Assembly: GCA_023379055.1 (NCBI GenBank)
Contig: JAMCSX010000017.1
Span: 101,868 to 145,058, forward strand
Length of the DNA stretch: 43,191 nt
Reading direction: 5' to 3'
Source: Candidatus Marsarchaeota archaeon
GTDB taxonomy: Archaea; Micrarchaeota; Micrarchaeia; Micrarchaeales; CABMGC01
Shown here: positions 3,503-43,191 of the stretch, in pieces
Layout: the number at the start of each line of letters is the position of its first letter
Numbering within the stretch: position 1 is the first letter of the stretch
Translations under genes and position numbers: made by a program
Notes under the pieces: generated by a model
Told to the model about the DNA's origin: nothing
Seen by the model: only the letters and a program-made list of their open reading frames with translations
Database searches by the model: none

Positions 3503-4747
3503 TCACCCATAGGCCGCCCATACGCCTTTTGGAGTTATTTCGGGCATGGCCCCAAACAGACCACTTTCAAGCTTTTCAAGCATGATTGACATTGCAACCT
3601 CGTTTGCAACGCCGTCTGACATCTTTGACAGATACTTCGATATAAATGCGGTTATAAACGCTTTCCTTGCCGAAGTCTCCGATAATCCGCGTGACTGCAG
3701 GTAAAACAGGGCTTCTTCGTCCATCGGGGACGACGCCGCAGAGTGTGTTGCTTTTACATCGTTGCTGTAATCTATTGACATGTCCGGAAGCGCATCGAGA
3801 TGTGCATCCTTGCTAAGAAGGATGCCGCGTTCGGTAATCTTTGATACGCATCCTTTTGTGCATCTGCCAATTTTTGCAAATCCCTTCAGCATACATTGCG
3901 ATCTTCCGTCAAGAAGCACTCCGGAATCCAGCATGGCCACGCTCTTTGGACTTGCATTTGTTATGATTGAAGATATGTCGAATTTCTGGTCCCCGGATCC
4001 GTATGCAACCTCTGTCACCTCGATTTTGCTGTCAGTACCGTTTGATTCGAAGAAATTTCTTGTCTTTGACCTGATGCCCCCGACATATACGAAGTTTGCG
4101 GATAGCTTCGATCCGCTTTGCGCAATGGATTTCGAGACGCCCATTACGTCAGTATATTGATTCTCGTTATGGATGACTGTTAGCTCAACACTTGAGGATT
4201 CTCCGATTTTTACTTCGTGGAGCGAGGATACGGTAGCAGGATCATCCGATCCGGACAAGTATATCTCCACCATGTCGAGCCTTGATTCCTTCCCTGCATT
4301 TGCAATTACCTGTACAGAGAGTCTGCTGGTTCCTATGAACAGAAGGTTTACGTGCTTTGACTCGCCATCCTTTGAGTCTATAAACAGGAAGTGGTCTGTG
4401 CTCGCATTTGCAAACGCCGAAAGCCTGTCATCACTGCTTTTTAGCATCTTGTGCCCCATAAATCCGGAATCAAGATCCTTTGGGCTCACTATTCTGACCT
4501 TTCCATTGAATGACTTGGCAGCATGCGCAGAAAGTATTGCATCAAACTTCAGATGGACCTTTTCAGATACCTCTTTTGATACTTTCTCAAGTGATAACTC
4601 CTCCAGATTTATATCGATTAACATTGCGGGTTCTTTCTCTAATTGGGGCAATTCCAGCGTATATTTTTTGTAAAGATCGTTAGGCTCACTGGGCAGACTG
4701 CCAAAGTTCGAGATGGCATCTTCTACAAATTCTTCGTATGTACGCAC
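3503..4747 (-). CDS. sufD: Fe-S cluster assembly protein SufD
   Basis: 414 aa with a SufB/SufD-family C-terminus (ATHSAASSPMDEEALFYLQSRGLSETSARKAFI). It lies between sufB and sufC. Confidence 0.8.
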   Translation of the reverse strand: MRTYEEFVEDAISNFGSLPSEPNDLYKKYTLELPQLEKEPAMLIDINLEELSLEKVSKEVSEKVHLKFDAILSAHAAKSFNGKVRIVSPKDLDSGFMGHKMLKSSDDRLSAFANASTDHFLFIDSKDGESKHVNLLFIGTSRLSVQVIANAGKESRLDMVEIYLSGSDDPATVSSLHEVKIGESSSVELTVIHNENQYTDVMGVSKSIAQSGSKLSANFVYVGGIRSKTRNFFESNGTDSKIEVTEVAYGSGDQKFDISSIITNASPKSVAMLDSGVLLDGRSQCMLKGFAKIGRCTKGCVSKITERGILLSKDAHLDALPDMSIDYSNDVKATHSAASSPMDEEALFYLQSRGLSETSARKAFITAFISKYLSKMSDGVANEVAMSIMLEKLESGLFGAMPEITPKGVWAAYG

Positions 4748-30215: not shown

Positions 30216-31481
30216 TCAGTACCATCCGCGTGATTTCATTGCCTTTGCAACCCTGCCAACTGCCACTATATAAGCGGCGGTCCTCGGACTTATCTTCCTT
30301 CCCTCCTTAGCATACTGCTTTTGCGTCTCTATAAGATCATTGAACGAGCGCGTTATTATCGTATCAAGGCGCTTGTATACGTCATCCTGCGTCCAGTAAT
30401 ATCCATCTATGTCTTGCACCCATTCAAAATATGACACTATAACCCCGCCCGAGTTTACCAGGAAGTCTGGCATGTCCAGCACACCGCGCTCGAAGAGTAT
30501 CCTGTCTGCTTCCAGCGTAACGGGTCCGTTTGCAAGCTCAAGCACGATCTTTGCCTTTACATTTCCAGCATTCTGCCCGGTTATCTGGTTCTCAAGTGCA
30601 GCAGGTATGAGAATATCTACATCAAGCTCAATAAGCTGGTCGTTTGTTATTTTCTGCCCTTTCCCGTATCCCTGCACCGTGCCTGTGGACTTCTTTGCCT
30701 CAAGAAGCTTATTGTAGTCCAACCCGTCCGGATCATAGATTCCGCCTCTTGAATCGCTTACGGCCACTACTTTCGCGCCATGTATGCCCGTAGCTATCTC
30801 AAATGCAAACATACCAGCATTTCCGAATCCCTGTATGGCTATGCTCGACTTGCCCAGATCGATACCTGAAAGCTTTGCAGCCTCTCTGAGTACGTACATG
30901 CCTCCCATCGCAGTTGAGTCAAATCTTCCTTCGGATCCGCCAAGCCCCACAGGCTTCCCGGTTATCACGCCAAACTCGTCATATCCGACTATCCTGCTGT
31001 ATTCATCCATCATCCAGGCCATCATTTGCGGATTCGTATATACATCAGGTGCAGGTATGTCCACCCTTGGCCCTATGTTTCTTCCAAGTGCCCTTATGTA
31101 TCCTCTTGACAGATCTTCAAGCTCTGCCTCATCCATTGATTTAGGATCGCAGATTACTCCGCCCTTTGCGCCTCCAAATGGGATATTGGCAAGCGCGCAT
31201 TTCCATGTCATCCAAGCAGAAAGCGCCTTTACTGTATCCACGCTTTCCTCTGGGTGATATCTTATGCCTCCCTTCCCTGGTCCGCGCGCATCATTGTACA
31301 ATACCCTGAATCCGGTAAACATCTTGACATTTCCGTCATGCATACGTACGGGTATATTGACTGTTATTATTCTCTTCGGCTCCATCAGTATCTGGAGTGC
31401 GGCCTTATCAAGGCCCATTATCTCGGCAGCAGATGCAAGCTCAGCCTGCGCTATCTTAAAAGGGTTTAGTTCTTCTGTCAT
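30216..31481 (-). CDS. gdhA: Glutamate dehydrogenase
   Basis: KGGIRYHP, the catalytic-lysine region IPFGGAKGG and the dinucleotide fold IQGFGNAG. 421 aa. Confidence 0.92.
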   Translation of the reverse strand: MTEELNPFKIAQAELASAAEIMGLDKAALQILMEPKRIITVNIPVRMHDGNVKMFTGFRVLYNDARGPGKGGIRYHPEESVDTVKALSAWMTWKCALANIPFGGAKGGVICDPKSMDEAELEDLSRGYIRALGRNIGPRVDIPAPDVYTNPQMMAWMMDEYSRIVGYDEFGVITGKPVGLGGSEGRFDSTAMGGMYVLREAAKLSGIDLGKSSIAIQGFGNAGMFAFEIATGIHGAKVVAVSDSRGGIYDPDGLDYNKLLEAKKSTGTVQGYGKGQKITNDQLIELDVDILIPAALENQITGQNAGNVKAKIVLELANGPVTLEADRILFERGVLDMPDFLVNSGGVIVSYFEWVQDIDGYYWTQDDVYKRLDTIITRSFNDLIETQKQYAKEGRKISPRTAAYIVAVGRVAKAMKSRGWY

Positions 31482-31873
31482 AAACTCATCTTACCATCAA
31501 AGGCTATCGACGTGCAGAGTTCATTTATCATGTTGCGTACATCGCTTGCCTTGCCATTCTCTGCAGCCTTCCTTGCAATCTTATTTGCTAGCTTGTTATC
31601 CTTTATATAATCCCTCATTCTTTTCACAGTACCGGAGTACTTGCCATTTAGATACTTGCTAACTGCAACCTGCGCTATCCCCAACTTATCGGCAATCTCT
31701 TGCTGGCTCAGATTATATTCTGACTGCATCTCCTCTGCAATGCTTATCCTTACTGCAGGAAGCACCACCTTGGCTATTTTGTCGCATTCCAGTTTCGTGA
31801 CATCCTCCAACGACTGAGAGTCGTTGGCTTCCAATGGTTCTCTTCGATTGGTCATCATAACAGTCTCAGTCAT
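31478..31873 (-). CDS. Small HTH transcriptional regulator (paralogue of the suf-linked one, lacking the Cys cluster)
   Basis: LSQQEIADKLGIAQVAVSKYLNGKYSGTV aligns with LTESRIASILGVAQAAVSKYLNGSYSKSV in 6176..6514. It overlaps both neighbours by 4 nt (the gdhA start and the upstream gene's stop). Confidence 0.7.
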   Translation of the reverse strand: MTETVMMTNRREPLEANDSQSLEDVTKLECDKIAKVVLPAVRISIAEEMQSEYNLSQQEIADKLGIAQVAVSKYLNGKYSGTVKRMRDYIKDNKLANKIARKAAENGKASDVRNMINELCTSIAFDGKMSL

Positions 31874-32571
31874 CTTTTCTTTTCCTTCTTTTTATCTTTT
31901 TCCAATGCGCTGCCTTCCGCAGGTTTATCCTGTTTTTCGGTGTCTATTATCCCAAGTGAATCTTTTATCCATCCTGAAATCCCAGGCCTCTTCGGTACCT
32001 GGTCTTCAACAGGCGCTTCCATGATGCTGTGTGAGAACTTTTTAAGCTGTAAAGGCGATTTTTTCTGTTCGGGAGTTTCGGCCTGTTGAATCTGCTGTTG
32101 CACCTTTTGCTGCAGCTGCTGTACCTGCGGTTTCATCTCATCCAGTGTAATGGTTGGCAGTTTTATCTTCATGGAGCCGAATCCGCCTCCCTTCACAAAT
32201 GCAGATATCATCCGTCCCATATCTCCACCCGGACTCTTAACTATCATAACATTTGAATTCTCTTCCCTTGCGCTTTTTACGTCTGAAAGGTCGTGGCATA
32301 CCGCGGAAGTTATTCCTTCATATTTATTGAAGGTCAGATTGGCTACTATTGGATTTGTTGGCAGGGCTATTATGAACCCAAACCTCCCTGAGGATAACAA
32401 GTCACATGCCTGTTTAGCGAGTGTCTTGGAGTCACCGGCCACCTCCTTTGTCATTACGGTAATCCCTTCAAGATCAAGGGAATTCACCACCGAGTCTATG
32501 GCTCCCTCTATATTGCTTATGATGAGTATCTTTATGCCAACACCACTTACGTGTGTTATGTTTATAAACAC
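31870..32571 (-). CDS. RpiB/LacAB-fold protein lacking catalytic residues, with Gln/Lys-rich disordered tail
   Basis: KILIISNIEGAIDSVV...GRFGFIIALPTNPIVANLTFNKYEGITSAVCHDLSDVKSAREENSNVMIV aligns by eye with E. coli RpiB KIAFGCDHVG...[47 protein letters not shown]. The catalytic CGTG is replaced by LPTN. GTG 32571 is chosen as the start because the longer ORF (to 32757) runs across the eS26 gene. Confidence 0.55.
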   Translation of the reverse strand: MFINITHVSGVGIKILIISNIEGAIDSVVNSLDLEGITVMTKEVAGDSKTLAKQACDLLSSGRFGFIIALPTNPIVANLTFNKYEGITSAVCHDLSDVKSAREENSNVMIVKSPGGDMGRMISAFVKGGGFGSMKIKLPTITLDEMKPQVQQLQQKVQQQIQQAETPEQKKSPLQLKKFSHSIMEAPVEDQVPKRPGISGWIKDSLGIIDTEKQDKPAEGSALEKDKKKEKKR

Positions 32572-32593
32572 ATCATATTTATATATATTCGAG

Positions 32594-32601
32594 ATAATAT
32601 A
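32594..32601. promoter_or_regulatory. Shared AT-box (ATAATATA) between the divergent RpiB-like operon and the eS26 gene
   Basis: Its centre lies about 27 nt from GTG 32571 (minus strand) and about 27 nt from TTG 32625 (plus strand). Confidence 0.35.
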
Positions 32602-32624
32602 GTACTGACAGAAACGGTGGTTTA

Positions 32625-32867
32625 TTGAGAGGAAGCGAAACGCTAGTAAGGTGCAATAACTGCGGTAGAACGGTATCAAGGAACAAGGCCGTAGCCGACG
32701 AAAAGATGATACGCTATGGTCTGGATGCAAATAATAAGGACATACGCTTCCAGACAAGCAGGAAAGTTTATTACTGCATTAGCTGTGCGAAACATAAAGG
32801 AATATTCCTGAGAAAGGCCGAACAGGCAGCAAGGCATGCGGCAAGACAGCGTAGCGGAATGTATTGA
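32625..32867 (+). CDS. rps26e: Ribosomal protein eS26 (S26e), N-terminally short, TTG start
   Basis: LVRCNNCGRTVSRNKAV and YYCISCAKHKGI match the two conserved Cys pairs of eS26 (VRCxNCxxxVPKDKA ... YCVSCAIH). Confidence 0.75.
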   Translation: MRGSETLVRCNNCGRTVSRNKAVADEKMIRYGLDANNKDIRFQTSRKVYYCISCAKHKGIFLRKAEQAARHAARQRSGMY

Positions 32868-32909
32868 TCTTTAATAAAGGTGTGATTGTTGGGTTCTGAA
32901 GGGTCTGAC

Positions 32910-33683
32910 ATGCTTATATTCAGCGAGAGGGGGTACGAATCACCTAGATCAAAGGCTGTCAAAAACCCCAAGATGCAGAGGCCAGATCCCAGGGCGGAGA
33001 TGCAGAATGAGGCCCGAAGCCCCGCATCTGCAAATACTGCCCCACAGCCAGATATCAAGAAACTTTATTGCACTAATCATCCGTGGAGACAGGCCTACGC
33101 AATCTGCGACAAATGCGGACTTCCGTATTGCTACGTTGACATGATAGGTTATAATAACAAGATGTACTGCCTGCAGGACATAGACTTTGCAACCAAACAA
33201 CATGGGCTGGAGCACGAAGAGACAAGGATAAACAGCTTCGCTGTACTTGCATCTATGCTGTTCCTTGTGAATTCCATGCTGCTTCTCTATTTTACATATC
33301 CCCAGGCAATATTCCTTCTCTCAAACGCGGCAAATAAGGGCATCACAGGGGCAATATCATTCTTCTTGAACTTTAATCCCCAGTACTTTGCGCCCTTTGC
33401 GAATACACTTATAATAATATTTGGATTCATATCCGCAATTACAATACTCAGGAAATCAGTAGTGTCATTCGGCGTCAGTTTCTTCATTGCGTTCATATCT
33501 TTGTTTATAGTCTCATACGAGTATCTGAATAGTAGTGTAACTTACCTTCTGTTATCGAGCTTGGTGCTTCTAATTGCAATATCCCTGACAATGTACAGCA
33601 GAATGAGCGCTATCGGACAGCACTCCGAAGAGAACTACAATGTGCTTCCTTCGGTGGAATGGCCAAAGCCGGAATCGTTCTAG
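32910..33683 (+). CDS. Membrane protein with N-terminal B-box-like zinc finger and 4 TM helices
   Basis: The Cys/His pattern is CTNHPWRQAYAICDKCGLPYCYVDMIGYNNKMYCLQDI. It is followed by four hydrophobic segments. Confidence 0.5.
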   Translation: MLIFSERGYESPRSKAVKNPKMQRPDPRAEMQNEARSPASANTAPQPDIKKLYCTNHPWRQAYAICDKCGLPYCYVDMIGYNNKMYCLQDIDFATKQHGLEHEETRINSFAVLASMLFLVNSMLLLYFTYPQAIFLLSNAANKGITGAISFFLNFNPQYFAPFANTLIIIFGFISAITILRKSVVSFGVSFFIAFISLFIVSYEYLNSSVTYLLLSSLVLLIAISLTMYSRMSAIGQHSEENYNVLPSVEWPKPESF

Positions 33684-33806
33684 GATCCCAGGCAGACCTA
33701 TGACTACTGCAAGATCTATCTAGTGGCACCATGATCCCTGCATGTTTCTAGTCATGGTCGCTCAGCAGAAAGGATAACATGTTCTCTCCTGAATTACATC
33801 TGCATC

Positions 33807-34490
33807 TTACTTCGTGCGTGATGATGACGAGATCAACATAAGCGAATCCCCTATGGCATTTATGAATGATATCTCGCTATCTCCCCCTCCAGTGTGGTCT
33901 GACCATAAGCTTAGGAAGCTGTTGTTGACATAATTGGCATTTATCCTGTAGAAACATACGGTATTTGCAGGACCTGCTTCCTCCCCGATTATTGTCCTGC
34001 CACTATTGCCATTGCCGTTCTCCAAAGCACTCTGAAGAAACTGCGCAAGATCGCCATGCTCCGCGGAGAACCGTATTATCTCGCTAAGCTGGTCCCCAGA
34101 CATATGGATTGAATAGCTGTAATTTCCGCCAGAATAATATCCTGTTCTTTTGCCGTCAACTGTTATTTTCGGATTCCCGACTCCTTCATCAAGTTTGAAG
34201 CTTGGCACATATTCTGCGCCATTCAGCACCTTTATGGATCCCATTGCAATCTCAAATGAGAGTGCATGGTCATCTGACCTGACTGCACTTCTAAGGGCTT
34301 TTTCGAGTATGCGTAGTTCGCTGTCTGTTCTGTCCTTAAGTCCTACTGCCCGATGGACATACTTTCTTGCCGAGTCCCTGAAAAGGTTGCGCGCAGCAAC
34401 AATGTTCCCATTTCTAAGCCTGTCCTCACCAGCTGTTGCAGAAAGAAGTCCAAGGGCATACAATGTCTCTCCTTTGTTCATAAAAAACAC
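33807..34490 (-). CDS. Hypothetical protein (227 aa), no recognisable motif
   Basis: A long ORF with ordinary composition lying between two well-supported genes. Function is unknown. Confidence 0.4.
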   Translation of the reverse strand: MFFMNKGETLYALGLLSATAGEDRLRNGNIVAARNLFRDSARKYVHRAVGLKDRTDSELRILEKALRSAVRSDDHALSFEIAMGSIKVLNGAEYVPSFKLDEGVGNPKITVDGKRTGYYSGGNYSYSIHMSGDQLSEIIRFSAEHGDLAQFLQSALENGNGNSGRTIIGEEAGPANTVCFYRINANYVNNSFLSLWSDHTGGGDSEISFINAIGDSLMLISSSSRTK

Positions 34491-34558
34491 AAACCATTCC
34501 TATTGCTAAACTGTTTGCAATCTGGAATTATAAAGCTTACCTGCAAGATAAGCAGAAC

Positions 34559-36433
34559 TTACATCCTGTCGAGTGCATCTATACCAAGTATTCCCAACGA
34601 GGTCCTCATTGCGCTTCTAAATGCGAATACAAGAGCAAGTCGTGCCTTCTTCTCTTCGGGCGAGCTGCCCTTAAGTATTGGCATGGTCTCGTAGAACCTG
34701 CTAAATGCGAATGCAAGATCCTTGGCATACTCCGTTACCAGGTTTGGCCTGTATTCCACACACGCCTTCTCAATAACATCCTTTAGCCTGGCGATTGCCT
34801 TGACAAGATTGAACTCGGTGTCCGATGACAGCAGTGCTATATTGGAATTTAGCATGTCCTTTACGTTTATTCCTGAATCTTCGATGAGCCTCGTTGACCT
34901 GGCGTTCATGTACTGGCAGTAGGGGCCGGAGTCGCCTTCAAATGTAAGTACCCGTTTCCATGAAAATGTTATCCACTTCTCTGTTGCAATCTTAAGGAAG
35001 GCGAACTTAATTGCAGAAAGTGCAACGCTCCTTGCAACTGACTCCTGTTCCTCCTCTCCAAGCTTCAGCCTGTCGCGTATCAGTCCCCTCGCCCGTTCAA
35101 ACGACTCTTGAAGAAGCCCGTCTGCAGTATTCTCCATGGATATGCCCTTCCTTGCAGCAAGCGTACCCTTTTCAAGCTCGACCCTCCCGTATGACAGATG
35201 CCTTATCCCATTCGCTATATCATCTCTTCCCATTTGCCTGAACGCAAGCCTAAGCAGGGCCTGGGGATAGTTCTGGCTTACATCTATTATGTTTATTGCC
35301 TCTGAGACGTGGCCAAAGTCCATATGCATCCCACTCTTTCCTGATGCATATGCCGGCTTTCCGTTAATTTGCTTGTCTATAAACGCCGAGTACTTGAATG
35401 CATCCTCAAGCATTCCGAACTTCCACATATGGAAGGCTATGTCCTTTGCAACATATGTAGGTGTGCCGTCCTTTCTTATTATCACCTTTACCTTCTCCTT
35501 CAAGCCTGCAAATTCGCTTGGCAGATCCTTTACAGATTTTAGGTCTATTATAGTACATCCTTTGTATTCTCCGTCGTTTGGCCTCAAGACGAACCCTTTG
35601 TCCGTAAGCATGTCCATAGCCTTCTCAACAAGCCTTTCACGAACTATATCACTTTCCCATATAAGCACATCATGATAGCACCCATAGCTGGCTGCAGTCT
35701 CATATTGTGCCCTGACGCACTTTTCCGCAAGCTCCCTTGCAATTACTGTCTCTACAGTGTCGCCTTGCTCAATTTTCTTGGCTAATTCGGATATCTTATC
35801 ACGGAATCCAGGCTCTTCTACCATGCCATTGGTTGTAGCATATATATCCCCGAGCCAATGGTCAAACTTCTTGTCTGGCTTGTTATTCTGACCCAGGTAT
35901 CCCCATATCGCAATAACCATCTGAAGCCCAAGATCCTCTATGTAATCCCCCCGTTCCACATTATACCCACAAATGTCGTGGAGCGCAGCCACACTATTCC
36001 CTATAAGCATGTTGCGCAGATGTCCAACGTGTATCGGATGCATGGGATTTGCACTTGGATACTCTATTAGGATTTTCTTGTTTCCACCAATATCCGACAC
36101 TTTAGCCATGTCAGCATTTATTATATTCCTGATCACAAATTCTGAGAACGCAGACCTGTCAAGATGAAAATTGAGGTAGCCATTCTCTGTTGAGACTGAC
36201 TTCACGTAAGCGACATTTCCCATTGCTTTCGCAATCTTATCCGCAACCTCATCCGGTTTCTCCCCTTTTGACTTTGATATCTTGAATGCCACTGAGCAGG
36301 ACATGTCACCTGATGCTTTCGATATGGCCATCATGTCTATAGATCCAGCAGCATCATAGCCAAGCGACTTGGCGGCAGACTCCACATATGAAGCAATCTT
36401 CCTACTTACTGACAGATACGGTGATTCCATCAT
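34559..36433 (-). CDS. argS: Arginine--tRNA ligase
   Basis: 624 aa with the class I HIGH motif as PMHPIHVGHLRN. It has an anticodon-binding (DALR) C-terminus ending ...LGILGIDALDRM, which is typical of ArgRS. Confidence 0.9.
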   Translation of the reverse strand: MMESPYLSVSRKIASYVESAAKSLGYDAAGSIDMMAISKASGDMSCSVAFKISKSKGEKPDEVADKIAKAMGNVAYVKSVSTENGYLNFHLDRSAFSEFVIRNIINADMAKVSDIGGNKKILIEYPSANPMHPIHVGHLRNMLIGNSVAALHDICGYNVERGDYIEDLGLQMVIAIWGYLGQNNKPDKKFDHWLGDIYATTNGMVEEPGFRDKISELAKKIEQGDTVETVIARELAEKCVRAQYETAASYGCYHDVLIWESDIVRERLVEKAMDMLTDKGFVLRPNDGEYKGCTIIDLKSVKDLPSEFAGLKEKVKVIIRKDGTPTYVAKDIAFHMWKFGMLEDAFKYSAFIDKQINGKPAYASGKSGMHMDFGHVSEAINIIDVSQNYPQALLRLAFRQMGRDDIANGIRHLSYGRVELEKGTLAARKGISMENTADGLLQESFERARGLIRDRLKLGEEEQESVARSVALSAIKFAFLKIATEKWITFSWKRVLTFEGDSGPYCQYMNARSTRLIEDSGINVKDMLNSNIALLSSDTEFNLVKAIARLKDVIEKACVEYRPNLVTEYAKDLAFAFSRFYETMPILKGSSPEEKKARLALVFAFRSAMRTSLGILGIDALDRM

Positions 36434-36563
36434 CCAGATCCACTTACAAACGCTTTTATAGTTTATATTCCTAATAATACCGTCTAATGACTATAAATGC
36501 GTATCGCAGATACATGGCGGTGTTTATATAGTAAAAATATACAAATCAAGCAAGGGAAAGCTC

Positions 36564-37388
36564 GTGCTTTACCTTCCTTTCGACGTGATAAGTGCACTGA
36601 AGCTAAGGGAGAATGATGAGGTAGACTTCTTCAGGATGCAGGACAGCGCATTCCTGTTCGCCAAGAAATCCGATGTTGCAGGACTTCTTATGGGCTCTAC
36701 GCAAAAGGAGCAGAAACAGACTGCACAGGGGTATGGCCTCGGGCATTCCGGCACTGACCCATTAAAACAGGAACCGTCTTCAGAGGAGATATCAGTACTG
36801 AAGAAGATAGATACGGTAAGATATGCAAATAGGACGCAGGAGAACACGCTCAGGATACTTGATGAAAGCGAGAAAAAGGTCCTTCAGGCTCTTATGTCTG
36901 AAGGATTCCTTGCAAAATTCAAGGGAAAGGACGGCAGGGAGCACTTCAGCATACCAAAGGCCATATACGACAAATTCCTGATGAGGAAGAAGCCAGTTGC
37001 AAAAGGCGAGCCCTACAATTTCGTTGTGCCTGCGTCGTCAAGGCAACCTGAGGATGAAGGCGCAGCATTGCTGGAAAAGAATGGATTCGTGGTGGTTCAG
37101 ACTGAGGCTGAGGCCGGAAAGGTATCGCTTGCCCTCGAACAGAGCATAAGGCGTGGGCAGGTACTTGGCACCAGGGCATTCAATAAGAAGTTCTATATCG
37201 TCCTAAGACAGTACCTTGACAGGTACAGTCCGCAGATACTCAAGAGGCTAAGAGACAGAGATTATAAGGTAGCGGATCTTGCAAAAGAGCTGCAGACCGA
37301 AGAAGAAGGAATACGAGCAATACTATACCTGCTCTCCGAGAACGGTGACGTGAGCGAAAAGAGGAGAGACATATTCACAATTGCATAA
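36564..37388 (+). CDS. Hypothetical protein with AbrB/SpoVT-like N-terminus and winged-helix-like C-terminus
   Basis: LYLPFDVISALKLRENDEVDFF resembles the SpoVT/AbrB swapped-hairpin motif. The C-terminal EEGIRAILYLLSENGDVSEKRRDIFTI looks like a wHTH. It has a GTG start. Confidence 0.4.
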   Translation: MLYLPFDVISALKLRENDEVDFFRMQDSAFLFAKKSDVAGLLMGSTQKEQKQTAQGYGLGHSGTDPLKQEPSSEEISVLKKIDTVRYANRTQENTLRILDESEKKVLQALMSEGFLAKFKGKDGREHFSIPKAIYDKFLMRKKPVAKGEPYNFVVPASSRQPEDEGAALLEKNGFVVVQTEAEAGKVSLALEQSIRRGQVLGTRAFNKKFYIVLRQYLDRYSPQILKRLRDRDYKVADLAKELQTEEEGIRAILYLLSENGDVSEKRRDIFTIA

Positions 37389-37394
37389 TGGCCA

Positions 37395-37547
37395 TCACAT
37401 AAGTGCCACATGGTCAAATATGAGTACCGCAATCACAAATACTGCTATTACAACAAGCACTACCCGCGCATTCAATACTGGACCGTGTTCAGGAGCATCA
37501 TAGAAACTTAGGACTCCTGCCTGCTGTTGCGGCGTTGATATTGGCAT
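37395..37547 (-). CDS. secG: Preprotein translocase subunit Sec61 beta (archaeal SecG), 50 aa
   Basis: My translation is MPISTPQQQAGVLSFYDAPEHGPVLNARVVLVVIAVFVIAVLIFDHVALM. It has the conserved GL-x-FYD-x-...-P motif followed by a single C-terminal TM helix. It falls below the ORF-track cutoff. Confidence 0.7.
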   Translation of the reverse strand: MPISTPQQQAGVLSFYDAPEHGPVLNARVVLVVIAVFVIAVLIFDHVALM

Positions 37548-37648
37548 GTTACCAGAAATTTATAACTTCGGAATATTAAAAAGTGTTCTGTTTTTAAACA
37601 TGTATCTTGCAGGCGCATCTTTTTAAACTTGAAGCCAGATTATCTAGC

Positions 37649-38146
37649 ATGCCACGTGATGAGGACGAAGAGACTGCAATAAAGCCCCAGTCAAATGGAC
37701 GCGTAAGCATAATTGGGCCAATGATACTCTGGACAATCCTGCTTCTTGTTGCAATATCTATAAACATAACAATTGCCAACTTCAATGCAATGCCTGCCAC
37801 TTCGACAATATACGCCGTTGCGAGTGCTTATTCAAAATTTGTGCTTAGCATGCCAGGCATTACAATACTCCCATTGATAATAGGCGCAATAATTGGCGCT
37901 GAGATAGGGTCAAGGTCACGGAGCCTTAAGCGCACAGCGAAAATCGGATTCCTGAATGGGATATATCTGTCTGTTATATATGCCATAACAATAATAGTCC
38001 TGTATATAGTTCTAGACTATGGCACTTCGCAGGCCCTTGCATTATCTGCGATACTGCTAAACAGCATAATACTCCCGATCATAGTGCTTCTGATATCAAT
38101 AGAGATATTTGCGATTCTCTCCTTTTCAAGGAAGGTAGATCTGTAG
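37649..38146 (+). CDS. Hypothetical integral membrane protein (4-5 TM)
   Basis: It is hydrophobic throughout. The ATG at 37649 (MPRDEDEE...) has a CTTTTTAAAC box about 25 nt upstream. The ORF opens at TTG 37607. Confidence 0.5.
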   Translation: MPRDEDEETAIKPQSNGRVSIIGPMILWTILLLVAISINITIANFNAMPATSTIYAVASAYSKFVLSMPGITILPLIIGAIIGAEIGSRSRSLKRTAKIGFLNGIYLSVIYAITIIVLYIVLDYGTSQALALSAILLNSIILPIIVLLISIEIFAILSFSRKVDL

Positions 38147-39319
38147 TCAGTGCGTAACTATTTTTATCACGTCGCCGTCCTTCAGCACGTATTCCTTTTG
38201 AAGCCTCATTTTTGTCTTTGCATCTATTGCGTACTTCATGCCTTTTGCTATGTCTGTATGTATTTTTGCAGCAAGATCGTACGCTGTACTTCCTTTTCTC
38301 ATCAGTATGGCATCCGGAAGTATGTTTCCTGAATGATCCGCATAATGTGATTCATCCTCAACAGGGTATACCACCAGGTTATCCAGAGTTCCAAATACTG
38401 CTTTATCTAAGAGCGCCTGTATTCCTGTTCCTCCGTGATCCTTTATGTAGCCCTGCATGTAACTTAATGCGCTCTTCTGCTCAGAATTCGCCTCCTTTAC
38501 TATATTGAAGCTATTCATACCGCTTACATAGTCTATTATTCCCTTGTTTGCTGCCTTCACAAGTGCAAGCTCTATTGCACCGGAGCAAGGTATCACTTCG
38601 ACTCCGTCAAGTTTCTTTCTAAGTCCTTCGAGATCCTCCTCCCTTCCCCTATCCATTTTGTTTGCAGCAATTATCAGCGGTTTGTTCTCCTTCAAAAGTG
38701 ATTTTGCAAATGCGCGAGCCTTATCCGGCTTCCAACTTATTCCAGAAAGCGGAAGGGAGTTAGCCGAAGCAGCTCTCCTTATCTGATTGATGTCAGACTT
38801 TAATCCGGACAGGATCTCAAGAAGTGCAACATCGCCATCACTTCTATTAGATAGGCTGGATATGTGGCTGGTTATTATTCCTCCAAGCCATGCAGCCATC
38901 TCATTCCTTATCATCTCGATTTCAACTGCGGGATCACTGCCCTCGCAGCCGGCTCCATTCATGTCCGTCTTTCCGCTTATGTCCACAACCTGTATGATTA
39001 CCTCTGCATTTATCAGATCGTTGAGGAACTGGTTGCCCATCCCCTTACCAAGGTGCGCTCCGGGAACTAGTCCTGCAACATCTATTATGTTTATGGGAAT
39101 CTGCCTGAATCCGTTCTTGCATACCGAGTTTCTAGGTTTGCACTTTATCCCAAGATCTATCTCTGCGCATCTTCTGCTTGCATATGCAACCCCAAGATTC
39201 GGCTTTATCGTTGTAAAAGCATAGTCCGAGATCTGCACTTCGTTAGCAGTCATAGCTGAGAATATGGTGCTTTTTCCCTTGTTAGGCGCGCCTACTAGTC
39301 CTATGAGCAACAAAATCAC
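38147..39319 (-). CDS. OBG-HflX-like GTPase of the YchF/Ygr210 type with C-terminal TGS domain
   Basis: G1 is GLVGAPNKGKST, G3 is DVAGLV and G4 is ANKMD. The C-terminal beta-grasp reads LKDGDVIKIVTH. Confidence 0.8.
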   Translation of the reverse strand: MILLLIGLVGAPNKGKSTIFSAMTANEVQISDYAFTTIKPNLGVAYASRRCAEIDLGIKCKPRNSVCKNGFRQIPINIIDVAGLVPGAHLGKGMGNQFLNDLINAEVIIQVVDISGKTDMNGAGCEGSDPAVEIEMIRNEMAAWLGGIITSHISSLSNRSDGDVALLEILSGLKSDINQIRRAASANSLPLSGISWKPDKARAFAKSLLKENKPLIIAANKMDRGREEDLEGLRKKLDGVEVIPCSGAIELALVKAANKGIIDYVSGMNSFNIVKEANSEQKSALSYMQGYIKDHGGTGIQALLDKAVFGTLDNLVVYPVEDESHYADHSGNILPDAILMRKGSTAYDLAAKIHTDIAKGMKYAIDAKTKMRLQKEYVLKDGDVIKIVTH

Positions 39320-39378
39320 GCATATGTAGATTGGAAAGCAGAGTTATAAAGATTATTTGTAAGTAATAGCCTTATAAT

Positions 39379-39465
39379 GCAGGGATGGCGGAGCATGGTC
39401 AAACGCGACGGGTTCAGGGCCCGCTTCCTTTAGTGGATGCGAGAGTTCAAATCTCTCTCCCTGCA
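39379..39465 (+). tRNA. tRNA-Leu (anticodon CAG), class II with long variable arm; integration target
   Basis: Acceptor GCAGGGA/TCCCTGC, anticodon loop TTCAGGG (CAG, G37) and a variable stem-loop TCC-TTTAGT-GGA. The T arm is GAGAG-TTCAAAT-CTCTC and the discriminator is A. There is one A-C mismatch at the top of the anticodon stem. A TTATAAAG box lies about 32 nt upstream. Confidence 0.85.
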
Positions 39466-39468
39466 AAT
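39427..39468 (+). repeat. attL: 42-bp direct repeat (3' part of tRNA-Leu plus 3 nt)
   Basis: CCTTTAGTGGATGCGAGAGTTCAAATCTCTCTCCCTGCAAAT is identical to 43137..43178. Confidence 0.9.
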
Positions 39469-40276
39469 CCAATTTACGGCGACAAGCTAGGGTTCGGAAA
39501 TCCGAAAGGTAAATCTTCAAAGACCGAAGATTTCGAGGATTTCTCCGAAACCCTCAAGCAGGTGTCCATGAACAGATCATGGCACCAATTACAAAAGCTA
39601 CAATCAGTTTTACATAAAACTCAGACCAAGAGGTTTGCAGGTAAGAGGAAGACGCCGAAATATGGCTCAATCTCAAAGGCGTTTTCCGATTCGCAGCTTC
39701 AGAGATTCCTTCACGTAATAGACTCTGACAAGTTTCGCTTGCTATTCAGCTACCAAGCGCAGCTTGGGCTTAGAATAGGAGAAGCGGTCAGAGTCAATAT
39801 CAACTCAATAGACCTAGAAACGAGGGAACTTACCTTGAAGACCGAGAAGGCTCGGGTAATGGACTCGTTATTGATACCAATGCCGCTGTTCAAGGATACC
39901 ATAATCTTCATCTCGAAGCACAAGTCCAAGATCGAGAATGCGCAGGGGTATCTGTTCTATGCAGACAAGCTACGAACCAAGCGGCCTGAGCCGTTCCTAG
40001 AGCAAAACTACGTGCGCAACAGGTTCAGGCACTATGTGCGACTGGCGGGGTTGGACGAGGTATACGATACCTCAGACGAAACCAACCCTAACAGGAGCGT
40101 AAGGCAGGCACCTTCATAGGCTCACTACCCACAGCCTACGGCACTATGCCATAACCAGCTTCGCCAGGCAGACAAATGGCAATTTGGTGCTAACAAGCCG
40201 GTTCGCTAGGCATAGCGACCCTAGCACCACGATGATCTACATAAGCACTAGGAAAGAGGAGCTTTACAAGGGATAG
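39427..40276 (+). pseudogene. int: Tyrosine recombinase (integrase), Int(C) portion reading out of attL; also frameshifted near 40103-40116
   Basis: Frame 1 (to the TAG at 40117-40119) carries the first catalytic Arg region QLGLRIGEAVRV. The +2 frame from 40103 to 40276 reads RHLHRLTTHSLRHYAITSFARQTNGNLVLTSRFARHSDPSTTMIYISTRKEELYKG (HxLRH box, second His, catalytic Tyr). Confidence 0.8.
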
Positions 40277-40341: not shown

Positions 40342-40491
40342 TTTCTCTACATGACTTGGGTTTCTCTACATGCCCAAGCCATTCCATGTAGAGAAAACCT
40401 CCCTCGTAAGCCCTCAAAATAGGGCTATTTTCTCTCTACATGACTGCACATCAATATTAGAGCCGTCCATGTAGAGTTTCATGTAGAGAAA
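40342..40491. repeat. Iteron-like cluster: six copies of (TTT)CTCTACATG in both orientations
   Basis: Forward copies lie at 40342-40353, 40361-40372 and 40428-40442 (the last is a variant, TTTTCTCTCTACATG). Reverse copies (CATGTAGAG(AAA)) lie at 40385-40396, 40468-40476 and 40480-40491. Confidence 0.8.
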
Positions 40492-40499
40492 CTCCCGCC

Positions 40500-40755
40500 T
40501 TGCAGCCTCCGCCCGCCTTTAAGACACCTTCGGTGTCGCACGGTGGGCTACGGCTGCTGCGGCTACTTTGTAGTACATGGCGGCGTTAAGGCTGATTTTG
40601 ACCCCCACGCAAAATCAGCCGCTTGCTAGGTGGCTAGCTTGCAGACCGTTGGGTCGTTAGCCCACGTGAGGAGCGTAGCTCTGAACGTGCTGGCGTAGCT
40701 AAAGGGTATGGGGTTTCCTTGAAGAAAAAGTCAGATGCTTAATACAGGAAGTCCA
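40500..40755. other. GC-rich non-coding block with stable hairpins (candidate ncRNA or origin-associated structure)
   Basis: No ORF is listed between 40418 and 40755. One sampled line (40501-40560) is about 67% GC. Hairpin 1 is GACACC-TTCG-GGTGTC (40523-40537). Hairpin 2 is GGCTGATTTTG-ACCCCCACG-CAAAATCAGCC (40590-40620). Confidence 0.5.
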
Positions 40756-41568
40756 TCACTTTACCGACTTCTTAGTAAGCGCTATGTAGTTTATTTTGCC
40801 CCATTCAAAATAGTAGTCTTTGCCCGATTCTCCATCTGAAATGCGAAGAGACTTACCTATAGAAGAGAGATAACCCTCTTTATCATCGACTTCGACAAGA
40901 ATCTTATTTTGTTTTTTAGATGCGAAGAGATCAAATATCTTATCCTGTATAGCCAGTTTGTCCGGAAGTATTCCCCTATAAATAATAACCTGTAGGAAAA
41001 TTAGATAAAAAGCTGAGACTACAGTACCAAGTATATCTTTAACTGCTTGAGGCGTCAGGTTGGCAAGCCCATTCGACAATAGTGCTATACCTGCACCTTG
41101 CATGTCTCCGAAATAAAGGAACATTAGAAAGCAGATGTAGAATATTGCTAATAGTAAGTTGTAGCTTTCCCTGAACCTGTACACAATAGTTTTTTCACTT
41201 TTTAGACTTTCGACCTTCATGTCCATTAATTTTGCTTCGATTAAAAGTACAAATAGCGAGCCGAATGTAGCCAAGAGTAAATAGTTATAGTCGCTGCTCT
41301 GAAAGAACTGTAACAGAATTAAAGCCAAAACTATGTAAATTCCTGCATTTACTAAGAACGGAATGTTCTCACTAGTGTAAATCTTATTGAATCTTTCGAA
41401 CTTTGATAGAAGAGTATCAAATTGTTTTGATGACTTTCTGATGGTATCAAGAGTTGCTTTACGCTGCCTTCCTTTTAAGAAGTAAACAAAATAAAAACTT
41501 AGAAGCGTAGCAACTAGCGGTATTCCAAAAATGCCTACCAATTCTAATACGGTTATCAAATCAACCAT
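40756..41568 (-). CDS. Element cargo: 5-TM membrane protein with about 70-aa soluble C-terminal domain
   Basis: Five hydrophobic helices, then KILVEVDDKEGYLSSIGKSLRISDGESGKDYYFEWGKINYIAL. It is AT-rich. The start is taken at ATG 41568 (MVDLITV...). The ORF opens at 41634. Confidence 0.6.
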   Translation of the reverse strand: MVDLITVLELVGIFGIPLVATLLSFYFVYFLKGRQRKATLDTIRKSSKQFDTLLSKFERFNKIYTSENIPFLVNAGIYIVLALILLQFFQSSDYNYLLLATFGSLFVLLIEAKLMDMKVESLKSEKTIVYRFRESYNLLLAIFYICFLMFLYFGDMQGAGIALLSNGLANLTPQAVKDILGTVVSAFYLIFLQVIIYRGILPDKLAIQDKIFDLFASKKQNKILVEVDDKEGYLSSIGKSLRISDGESGKDYYFEWGKINYIALTKKSVK

Positions 41569-41682
41569 GTGTATAATATCCACGTAAAAGTATATAACAT
41601 TTTTGAGGAGATGGAACACAGAGTTTAACAACAATCAAACTGAGCGCCAAAAGTTAAATATTAGTTTATTGTAGAATAAATC

Positions 41683-42969
41683 ATGTCAAATAATATCTTT
41701 GATTTTGCACCGCATGAATTAAATCACTCTGCTTTCTGGGCTTGGATATTAGCTAGTTTAAGCAAAGACAATCACAAGAATAAACAAAATGAAATAGGAA
41801 GAAGGATTGCAAGTAAGTTCTTAAAGAAAGTTGGGATTGACAAATCTGCAATAAAAAATATTAGTGTCGAACACCAAGCCTCCCCACTAACAAGTAAAAA
41901 CAGCGAAGGATCAACGTATGACATAAAAGCTGTGATTGAAGTAAAAAATGGTAAAAGTGTGTTTCTTGTTATAGAAACAAAAGTAAAAGCAAAAGCGGGG
42001 AGTGGGCAGCTAGAAAAGTACATCGGATATATCCAAAGAGAGTGTAAGGAAAAGCGACGTAAGGGTTATTTAATCTTACTAGATATTCAAGGCAAATCTC
42101 CACTTAAAGATAAAGAAAAAGAGGTACTCTATAAAGAAGCGAACAAGAAAGGAGTTGAATTCAAGATTTTTACTCCTGCTGACGTAATAGAAATCATAAA
42201 AGGGAATAAAAAAATTGATACGAAATATGATGGTTACCTTGTAAACAATTATATTGAATGGATTGAAGGTAACAAGGACTTTTGGGAGTATATATGCAAA
42301 GGCATAGTTTATGGAATTAGTGAAAAAGGAAATAAAAACATAAATGTAATTCGACCAAAGCGACACAAAGGGTGGGGATGGAAAGTAGAATCAAAAAAAG
42401 TTGGGATTGGAGAAGTTGGACTTATTTTTAAAGAGAATTCAAAGAAAGTGAAGATTGAATGTTGGTTTGGAGATGATTATACCCAGATAGAAGAGGTTTT
42501 CGAAAATCGGGAAACTATAAGAAGAAATCTTAAAAAATTAGAAGATAAAGGATGGAAAATCAAACCAAATCTATATTTCTGCACCTCTATAAATAAAAGA
42601 CATTATCCAGAGCAAATAGATTCGAATAATTGGGAAATGTATTTTGATATTTTATATGATTCAAAGGATGTTAAAAAAATAAAGTATTCTGCTGATGAAA
42701 TGGAAAAGAAGTTTCTGGAACTGGTAAGACGTGGTGCAATCAAAAATGTAGATGCTGAGGATGACACAAAGAGAAATGGCACTAGAAGTATACTAAAAGG
42801 CGATATTAAAAAAATTAGAAAACACCGAGCTACGCTGAAGCGAGGTATTGGAGCCATCTATGGCTATAAGACCCGTGATTTGTTAAACCCCAAAGAATTA
42901 AAGAAACTAAATTCAACGATAGCTAATAAAATCAATGAAGCTTTGGGCGACTTGCCAGATAAAAGCTAA
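41683..42969 (+). CDS. Element cargo: PD-(D/E)xK (RecB/Cas4-like) nuclease-domain protein with Lys-rich C-terminal extension
   Basis: STYDIKAVIEV...FLVIETKVKAKAGSGQLEKY gives D, E-x-K and QxxxY motifs in the canonical order. The protein is 428 aa and about 30-35% GC on sampled lines. Confidence 0.55.
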   Translation: MSNNIFDFAPHELNHSAFWAWILASLSKDNHKNKQNEIGRRIASKFLKKVGIDKSAIKNISVEHQASPLTSKNSEGSTYDIKAVIEVKNGKSVFLVIETKVKAKAGSGQLEKYIGYIQRECKEKRRKGYLILLDIQGKSPLKDKEKEVLYKEANKKGVEFKIFTPADVIEIIKGNKKIDTKYDGYLVNNYIEWIEGNKDFWEYICKGIVYGISEKGNKNINVIRPKRHKGWGWKVESKKVGIGEVGLIFKENSKKVKIECWFGDDYTQIEEVFENRETIRRNLKKLEDKGWKIKPNLYFCTSINKRHYPEQIDSNNWEMYFDILYDSKDVKKIKYSADEMEKKFLELVRRGAIKNVDAEDDTKRNGTRSILKGDIKKIRKHRATLKRGIGAIYGYKTRDLLNPKELKKLNSTIANKINEALGDLPDKS

Positions 42970-42975
42970 TTTAGG

Positions 42976-43000
42976 GTTCAGATTTAATGGAAATCTGAAC
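42976..43000 (+). terminator. Perfect 10-bp inverted repeat GTTCAGATTT-AATGG-AAATCTGAAC just after the nuclease-gene stop
   Basis: It was seen directly. A third half-site, GGTTCAGATT, lies at 43039-43048. It could act as a hairpin terminator or as an operator upstream of the Int(N) start. Confidence 0.4.
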
Positions 43001-43091
43001 GCTAGCTGCTTAAATAGATTGCTTGGCCATAATTTATGGTTCAGATTAACCTGCTTGGGCTTAGAATTTTATGTTGTTTTTGGTGTGAAAT

Positions 43092-43178
43092 ATGGTTAGG
43101 AATATAGGCGTGAAACAGCTAGGAAACACTCTCAAACCTTTAGTGGATGCGAGAGTTCAAATCTCTCTCCCTGCAAAT
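43092..43178 (+). CDS. Putative Int(N) fragment: ATG plus 15 codons reading in frame into attR
   Basis: ATG 43092 is preceded by an in-frame TGA at 43086. It reads MVRNIGVKQLGNTLK then PLVDARVQISLPAN, the same frame in which attL reads into the integrase body. Confidence 0.45.
43137..43178 (+). repeat. attR: second copy of the 42-bp repeat
   Basis: It is identical to 39427..39468. The sequence upstream (43100-43136) has no tRNA 5' half, so this is a duplicated tRNA 3' end and not a second gene. Confidence 0.9.
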
Positions 43179-43191
43179 TTAACAGAAGATA

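Follow-up and report, generated by a model that had tools for sequence, protein, structure and literature searches.

A predicted PD-(D/E)xK endonuclease gene on an apparently decayed, tRNA-integrated archaeal mini-element: a candidate stand-alone defence or addiction nuclease

Introduction

What are two foreign-looking genes doing beside a tRNA gene in an archaeal genome? The locus that raises this question lies towards the right end of a 43,191-nt stretch of contig JAMCSX010000017.1 (hereafter the window), where a 3.7-kb element sits at the end of a tRNA-Leu gene and carries two divergently transcribed genes, one for a membrane protein (gene A) and one for a putative nuclease (gene B). The initial annotation proposed the two as partners of a candidate defence or exclusion module. 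As to mechanism and ALTERNATIVES, we give about an even chance to a different reading, namely that gene B works alone, as a nuclease of defence or addiction, on a hybrid mini-element in decay, and that gene A is an orphan piece of cargo. To our knowledge, almost nothing is known about the mobile elements and the immunity of DPANN-type archaea, among which the host of this element probably belongs.

Results

Gene B is predicted to encode a PD-(D/E)xK endonuclease under purifying selection

Gene B and its two domains lie as follows:

41683 to 42969, plus strand: gene B, 428 aa (open reading frame, ORF)
41683 to 42267, plus strand: gene B N-terminal domain, aa 1-195, PDDEXK_4 nuclease (Pfam, E = 8.4e-12)
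42268 to 42969, plus strand: gene B C-terminal domain, aa 196-428, basic alpha/beta, pI 9.6 (alignment and AlphaFold2)

By searching 5.8 billion protein clusters we found six relatives of gene B, all full length and 46-78% identical to it. No more were returned by a profile re-search, a scan of GTDB genomes, IMG/VR or a phage collection; a scan of JGI metagenomes gave just two known contigs and one fragment, and a plasmid collection gave distant matches to the N-terminal domain only. All seven ORFs of the resulting family are intact and all lie on AT-rich contigs. Gene B matches the Pfam family PDDEXK_4 (PF14281) over residues 4-162 with 45.8 bits, against a cut-off of 22.3, and so do all the other members (7/7).

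The initial annotation had read in gene B the D, ExK and QxxxY residues of a RecB/Cas4-type nuclease and expected a restriction-endonuclease-like fold. Both expectations were borne out. First, D80 (codon 41920-41922), E98 (41974-41976) and K100 (41980-41982), as well as Q109, K112 and Y113 in the Q109xxxY113 helix that comes after them and an N-terminal IFDFAPHELNHSA helix, are invariant in all seven sequences. Second, AlphaFold2 run on the family alignment (mean predicted local distance difference test, pLDDT, 79.9; predicted TM-score, pTM, 0.74) gave a canonical restriction-endonuclease core, with strands at 57-66, 79-87, 92-100 and 127-134 and a helix at 107-124, in which D80 opens the second strand (79-87) and ExK ends the third (92-100). 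Third, Foldseek placed this model closest in the PDB to EcoT38I (E = 7e-4), along with EndoMS, BstEII, EcoO109I and the effectors Card1 and Cap4, and its best match in a viral library was a PD-(D/E)XK protein (TMt 0.57). The whole-chain TM-scores are low (0.17-0.22) because the match is confined to the N-terminal domain. No solved structure matched gene B by sequence at E <= 10.

The Cas4 half of the earlier assignment did not survive. Gene B has cysteines at 121, 205, 260 and 300 only, of which C260 alone is invariant, so that the four-cysteine Fe-S cluster is missing, and no family member has a Cas4/PDDEXK_1 Pfam match at E <= 5; what stands is the PD-(D/E)xK domain with its QxxxY.

Finally, the ratio of non-synonymous to synonymous substitution rates (dN/dS) was 0.13-0.35 for every pair of family members with estimable dS. 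The conservation of the catalytic residues, the fold and these ratios together indicate that gene B is a functional nuclease gene, and we predict its product to be a Mg2+-dependent PD-(D/E)xK DNA endonuclease encoded as a self-contained single gene.

Gene B joins a PDC-S26-like nuclease domain to a C-terminal domain of its own

The PDC systems are 145 untested candidates proposed by "guilt-by-embedding" in BREX, DISARM and Type I restriction-modification (RM) loci (bioRxiv 10.1101/2024.01.29.577857). Four PADLOC profiles of one of them, PDC-S26, matched gene B with E = 3.9e-9 to 1.3e-6, over profile positions ~37-204 of ~400 only, and the best-covered single profile was matched by five of the seven family members. 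By comparison, a true PDC-S26 protein from the Methylorubrum extorquens AM1 megaplasmid covered positions 1-396 of 400 with E = 7e-131. When we aligned the gene B family with this protein using hhalign, the nuclease domain was matched with 88% probability and the C-terminal domain with 0.1%.

The C-terminal domain of gene B is modelled at a pLDDT of mostly 78-92 and contains conserved motifs (KGWGW, IGEVGxIF, CWFG, PxLYF, KRH and TLKR) that are specific to the seven-member family. We infer that it is a DNA-recognition or sensor domain. A degenerate second nuclease arisen by internal duplication was ruled out by hhalign, and the domain has no similarity to DUF5655/PDC-S18 or to two proteins encoded near gene B relatives and described below, the one upstream of the nuclease gene in L006 and the membrane protein of L002.

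Two plasmid-encoded proteins, from Burkholderia vietnamiensis pBVIE01 (locus L015, 4001-5074) and a Paraburkholderia plasmid (L010, 6001-6765), share with gene B the NLFDFAPSELSxDAF helix and the nuclease core and end in a third, unrelated C-terminal region. Since the C-termini of gene B, PDC-S26 and the plasmid proteins all differ, PDDEXK_4 seems to be a nuclease module with interchangeable C-terminal domains. As judged from these alignments, gene B is a new domain combination and not a member of PDC-S26.

Gene B recurs in a block with a hairpin spacer, the apparent start of an integrase gene and the attachment site

The element is an insert between two exact 42-nt direct repeats (100% identity, spacing 3710 nt), taken here as its attachment (att) sites, which consist of the last 40 nt of tRNA-Leu(CAG), one of three tRNA genes that ARAGORN found in the window, plus 2 nt. 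The parts needed here are:

39378 to 39466, plus strand: host tRNA-Leu(CAG), the integration target (ARAGORN; Rfam tRNA, 47.3 bits)
39427 to 39468: attL, left copy of the 42-nt repeat (repeat search, 100% identity)
39469 to 40276, plus strand: int(C), catalytic part of a tyrosine recombinase, frame-interrupted (Pfam Phage_integrase on both pieces)
42972 to 43046, plus strand: conserved spacer with a hairpin, GGTTCAGATTT/AAATCTGAAC (42972-43004), and a third GGTTCAGAT copy (43038-43046)
43092 to 43136, plus strand: int(N), 15-codon ORF MVRNIGVKQLGNTLK with its ATG at 43092, in frame through att (translation)
43137 to 43178: attR, right copy of the 42-nt repeat, a perfect 42/42 match to the host tRNA end

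The frame in which int(N) runs through attR is the frame that leads from attL into the catalytic domain of int(C); by our own estimate, an open frame across att has a ~10% chance of arising at random. In an excised circle, int(N) would thus run on into int(C), and gene B and the integrase gene would be adjacent and co-directional. SSV-type "suicidal" integrases carry attP within int, and on integration the gene is cut in two, with int(C) at one end of the element and int(N) at the other (PMC7253208, PMC8371274); the integrase gene of the window likewise appears to have been split by its own integration. The only Pfam family found in it is PF00589 (27.4 and 18.2 bits), with no match to PF16795 at E <= 1. 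Because PF16795 is the family reported for the SSV clade, we speak of an SSV-like arrangement of PF00589 type and not of a member of that clade. An intact circular copy or a full-length integrase homologue was not found; IMG/VR, phage and plasmid collections held no relatives of the integrase, and the spacer/int(N) DNA pattern had no match in IMG/VR.

The integrase is broken in the window. The first frame of int(C) ends at a stop at 40117-40119 and the HxxR...Y end lies in the next frame, from ~40103 to 40276; the frame change, near 40100-40120, directly precedes HxxR...Y and is identical in a second assembly, GCA_023484965.1.

By sequence comparison, gene B, the spacer, int(N) and att form a block common to four elements, namely those of the window, L002, L001 and L003/L004. 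The block comprises the gene B promoter, gene B, a ~120-nt spacer with the hairpin and GGTTCAGAT repeats, int(N) and att. DNA homology between the window and L002 covers 41683-43180 with 75% identity, from the ATG of gene B through the spacer into attR. The homology starts exactly at the ATG in L002 and 17 nt upstream of it in L001, and gene B therewith has the outline of a one-gene unit. The spacer with its hairpin and GGTTCAGAT repeats was found again at 2415-2500 in L001, 4491-4565 in L002 and 3499-3575 in L003, with one compensatory base pair; lying between gene B and int(N), the hairpin is a possible terminator or operator for integrase expression. The int(N) of L002 keeps 13 of the 15 residues, with three nucleotide changes of which two are synonymous and one turns V into A. 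In L001 and L003/L004 the spacer leads to a tRNA-like att unlike that of the window, which in L001 and L003 we take to be tRNA-Glu-like. An analogous ORF starts with ATG and runs through this different att in L001, and the same ORF has a stop at codon 3 in L003.

The genes on the left-hand side all differ between the elements that carry the block, and none of the loci related to gene B contains a remnant of int(C). The block is also absent around the more distant gene B relatives of L005, L006 and L008.

L002 (1-4816) is a second complete integrated element of the same family, 4.6 kb long, with two att-like repeats, at 79-112 (left) and at 4658-4691; the first of them is the end of the element's integration target, a tRNA-Leu(UAA) gene. 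This gene, at 11-117, has a 20-nt insertion in the D-loop, perhaps a non-canonical intron, and was missed by both ARAGORN and Rfam. The element has lost int(C), has a degenerate attR (88%) and contains two genes of insertion sequences (IS), a fragment of an IS200-like Y1 transposase and a split IS6/IS240-type transposase. Its gene B is intact. The contrast is not confined to L002: a frameshift breaks the integrase of the window and a stop interrupts the int(N) of L003, whereas all seven members have an intact gene B.

Some gene B relatives have defence-type neighbours

The neighbours of gene B in L001 are a Type II methyltransferase and a BglII-like endonuclease, and in L003 a GIY-YIG/DUF5655 protein that matches PDC-S18 with E = 6.5e-35. 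In L006 they are an HNH nuclease and a HerA-like ATPase, L006 and L008 both lying among HNH, HerA-like and IS genes. The gene B of the window has no recognised defence neighbour, and there are only 5-6 independent contexts in all. The match of the N-terminal domain to PDC-S26 and the RM, PDC-S18-like and HNH neighbours of the relatives make a role of gene B in conflict plausible.

In the two most distant relatives, the gene of a soluble protein of 239-251 aa runs up to or into the beginning of the nuclease gene (L006, 247-966; L008, 101-856). The protein has weak, sub-threshold matches to DUF6308 and to amino acid:DNA transferases and possibly forms with the nuclease a two-gene unit, one unlike the pair proposed for the window.

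The element looks like a hybrid of two unlike halves

The GC content of the element changes at ~40750, from 47-55% in the left half to 33-40% in the right half, which holds gene A, gene B, the spacer, int(N) and attR. Two more features belong to the left half:

40344 to 40489: six CATGTAGAG(A/T) repeats, three per strand, within 146 nt just past the integrase stop
40500 to 40755: hairpin-rich spacer with several perfect hairpins, 55% GC, at the compositional break (RNA fold z = -3.9, plus strand)

Every exact copy of CATGTAGAG(A/T) in the window lies at 40344-40489, and with up to one mismatch there are 9 matches against 3.2 expected. The repeats look like iterons and may serve the left-half element as an origin or as binding sites for proteins. 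No locus related to gene B has this cluster. More generally, the left-half DNA (iterons and GC-rich spacer) has no similarity to the related loci or to the remaining window, nor does it match an Rfam family. An exact 15-nt repeat, GCTTGGGCTTAGAAT, occurs at 39762-39776, in the region of int(C) that encodes the catalytic Arg, and at 43053-43067, in the spacer upstream of int(N); by chance, 4 kb should contain ~0.01 repeats of this kind.

Hybrid elements with Int(N) and Int(C) of different sources are documented, and are modelled by tandem integration and homologous recombination (PMC7253208). Two halves of unlike origin are what this model predicts, and the element of the window looks like such a hybrid, in decay. 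The initial annotation, in which the cargo was foreign even relative to the integrase, was therefore too simple: gene B travels with int(N) and att, and it is int(C) that lies in the compositionally different half.

Independent data cover both halves. Assembly GCA_023484965.1 (JAMCZS010000040.1) is 99.975% identical to the window over 15.9 kb, up to 40502, and a Logan contig from another run is 100% identical to 40671-42800. Since the first of these contigs ends at 40502 and the second begins only at 40671, the joint of the halves (40503-40670) is documented by the assembly of the window alone. In the 1.25 kb that we aligned base by base with GCA_023484965.1 (locus L020; 39260-40502), the sole multi-base difference falls at 39641-39652. 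There, within int(C), the other assembly has TTTGCAGGGAGAGAGAT, a sequence that matches the att/tRNA 3' end perfectly in inverted orientation, and the window has five mismatches to it. Variation within the population, a scar of recombination and an assembly artefact are all possible causes. Also, a host contig from Logan run SRR10276728 (L019), equivalent to 30530-39407 of the window, ends within the tRNA-Leu gene, 20 nt short of att, as would be expected if the site were polymorphic in that population (occupied or empty, or holding different elements).

As to the host, the window around the element encodes archaeal-type proteins, among them Rad50, an archaeal-type GdhA and a YchF-related GTPase. 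The 31-mer at the 3' end of the tRNA-Leu gene has a sole exact match among 185,579 GTDB species representatives, in a Candidatus Micrarchaeaceae metagenome-assembled genome.

Gene A is a lineage-specific orphan

Gene A and the region that it shares with gene B are:

40756 to 41568, minus strand: gene A, 270 aa from its ATG (ORF)
41569 to 41682: intergenic region between the divergent genes A and B, 114 nt, 29% GC

The initial annotation had described two divergent genes of foreign composition, the first with five transmembrane (TM) helices and a beta-rich tail, and our data agree. Gene A has a GC content of 35.8% and gene B of 33.0%, compared with 45-49% in six host genes, 47.5-51% in the integrase pieces and 46% in the genome. 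At the local composition a stop is expected every ~12 codons, and chance does not account for frames that stay open over 270 and 428 codons (~1e-10 for gene A and ~1e-16 for gene B). Hydropathy places TM segments of gene A at residues 1-32, 67-91, 96-115, 134-157 and 176-202; by the positive-inside rule, the N-terminus is outside and the basic 68-aa tail (residues 203-270) cytoplasmic. A single-sequence AlphaFold2 model was unreliable (pLDDT 47), with three short strands in the tail as the sole part reaching a pLDDT of ~70. A start at an alternative TTG (41634) would lengthen the protein to 292 aa.

By eye, a TATA-like box precedes each ATG by ~25 nt, TTATATA in the case of gene A and TTAAATAT in that of gene B, which suggests leaderless archaeal transcripts. 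The last 17-45 nt ahead of gene B are conserved in L001.

Gene A matched no family in Pfam, NCBIfam, PADLOC or PHROGs. Its only match was itself, both in the 5.8 billion clusters (word-indexed search) and in 1.84 billion representatives (exhaustive phmmer), and Foldseek with the single-sequence model gave nothing at E <= 0.001. Near the six relatives of gene B, we detected no gene A-like neighbour with phmmer --max on called genes or with six-frame tblastn. L002 does encode a membrane protein of 295 aa with 3 TM segments at the equivalent divergent position, beyond the inserted IS; it is unrelated to gene A, and the analogy is a single, positional one. Since homologues of the two genes never co-occur, the proposed pair is not a conserved module, and the combination of a membrane sensor with a nuclease is an accident of adjacency. 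On these searches, gene A is a lineage-specific orphan membrane protein in a variable cargo slot, unrelated to gene B. If it has a function at all, superinfection exclusion at the membrane would be our most plausible guess.

Discussion

In the reading that we favour, the basic C-terminal domain of gene B would recognise DNA and the N-terminal domain would cut it. This could serve type IV-like or foreign-DNA-specific restriction of competing viruses and plasmids or, alternatively, addiction, in which loss of the element would be penalised. As the element has no methyltransferase, it is likeliest that gene B targets foreign or modified DNA, or acts in addiction. Either mode would explain why an intact gene B is kept under purifying selection where the integrase is broken.

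Several points weigh against this proposal. First, the constant place of gene B beside int(N) and att, where all the rest varies, looks like that of a backbone gene and not of cargo. Second, the element contains no methyltransferase or immunity gene for self-protection. Third, PDC-S26 is itself an untested candidate, and gene B matches its nuclease domain only; the C-terminal domain of gene B has no Pfam, PDB-sequence or PADLOC match. Fourth, all loci were found via searches with gene B, to which elements lacking gene B are invisible. Fifth, the placement of the host among DPANN or Micrarchaeota-like archaea, though probable, is tentative, as it comes from one exact tRNA match and the archaeal-type proteins.

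The fixed position beside int(N) makes a backbone function the main rival: gene B would be a maintenance nuclease for replication initiation, processing or excision and not an immunity gene. The block common to the four elements, which is kept while all their left-hand genes differ, fits this view. So does the place of gene B just upstream of, and co-directional with, int in the circular form, and in a three-gene element it is the sole candidate for replication or processing. However, Pfam found no Rep, primase or helicase motif in gene B, and the iterons are in the unrelated half and absent from the other gene B elements. Moreover, gene B stays intact and under purifying selection even where the integrase is dead, its relatives in L005, L006 and L008 do without the spacer/int(N)/att block, and its N-terminal domain is related to genes embedded in defence systems. 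We also count against it that we know of no plasmid or virus initiator with a PDDEXK_4-type domain. On balance, we hold a backbone role to be unlikely.

Even less probable, in our estimation, is that the region is a decaying remnant or a partial assembly chimera, at present functionless, whose ORFs have merely not yet degraded. The integrase frameshift in two assemblies, the half-to-half junction seen in the window assembly alone (contig ends at 40502 and 40671) and the want of gene A relatives for a test of selection are compatible with such an origin, but both ORFs are intact despite the high density of expected stops, gene B is under purifying selection with invariant catalytic residues, attR is a perfect copy of the host tRNA end (42/42), and the segment from gene A to gene B with 85 nt of the GC-rich spacer is 100% identical in an independent assembly. 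Last, a two-component abortive-infection or exclusion system, with gene A as its membrane sensor or effector and gene B as its nuclease, is very improbable: adjacency, the shared 114-nt promoter region, a similarly high AT content and the membrane protein of L002 speak for it, but gene A has no relatives and no counterpart beside any gene B relative, gene B lacks a membrane partner in L001, L006 and L008, the L002 protein has a different architecture, and the synonymous codon usage of the two genes is poorly correlated (r = 0.24).

Gene B, then, brings a new domain architecture to a nuclease family that is known but uncharacterised, and the archaeal mini-element that carries it is of a kind not described before. 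Should gene B be an immunity nuclease, it would give PDDEXK_4/PDC-S26, a group with bioinformatic support only so far, an archaeal branch with a new recognition domain. By published accounts, self-splitting integrases are peculiar to hyperthermophilic archaea and to a single Pfam clade; confirmation of the int(N)/att/int(C) layout would widen this picture and make the element a compact natural example of the hybrid-element model. More speculatively, and with the chances clearly against it, gene B might mark a class of undescribed, tiny, tRNA-integrating shuttles of defence genes in AT-rich, probably DPANN, archaea, with a "suicidal" integrase outside PF16795 and outside hyperthermophiles. Gene B would then be a new single-protein immunity nuclease with a new foreign-DNA sensor as its C-terminal domain, and gene A a new membrane exclusion factor.

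Comparison with known systems

The closest known systems are the PDDEXK_4 nucleases, PDC-S26 among them. Gene B has their domain in its N-terminal ~195 aa, complete with the helix motif at the start, D...ExK and QxxxY, and is likewise a single-gene unit of ~400 aa on mobile DNA; some of its relatives stand beside defence genes. PDC-S26 is bacterial, however, and the C-terminal half of gene B has no detectable similarity to it.

With EcoT38I (7e8r), BstEII (9ibq), EcoO109I (1wte) and EndoMS (5gkj), gene B shares the alpha-beta-beta-beta-alpha-beta core with acidic residues and a lysine on strands 2 and 3. Like Type II/IV restriction endonucleases and NucS/EndoMS, it carries, fused to the nuclease, a putative recognition domain that is distinct from it; unlike them, gene B shows no relationship at the sequence level and comes without a cognate methyltransferase.

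The element resembles the SSV1, pTN3 and pT26-2 families in its archaeal host and its tRNA 3'-end target. It further resembles SSV-type elements in that att apparently lies within the integrase frame and that the two moieties look different in origin, and in the switch of att type among close relatives (tRNA-Leu in the window and L002, another tRNA-like site in L001 and L003). It differs from them in that its integrase matches PF00589 and not PF16795, its host is not an evident hyperthermophile but probably a DPANN archaeon, and it has just 3.7 kb and three genes, with ~15 codons of int(N) before att.

Finally, the bacterial P4-like satellites, phage-inducible chromosomal islands (PICIs) and pipolins belong to another domain of life and follow another integrase logic, and the helper-related, packaging or replication genes that would liken the element to them are not recognisable in it. 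The likeness is one of analogy only: here as there, a constant integration module is combined with a variable slot that holds RM or nuclease genes, and cargo is kept after the mobility genes have decayed.

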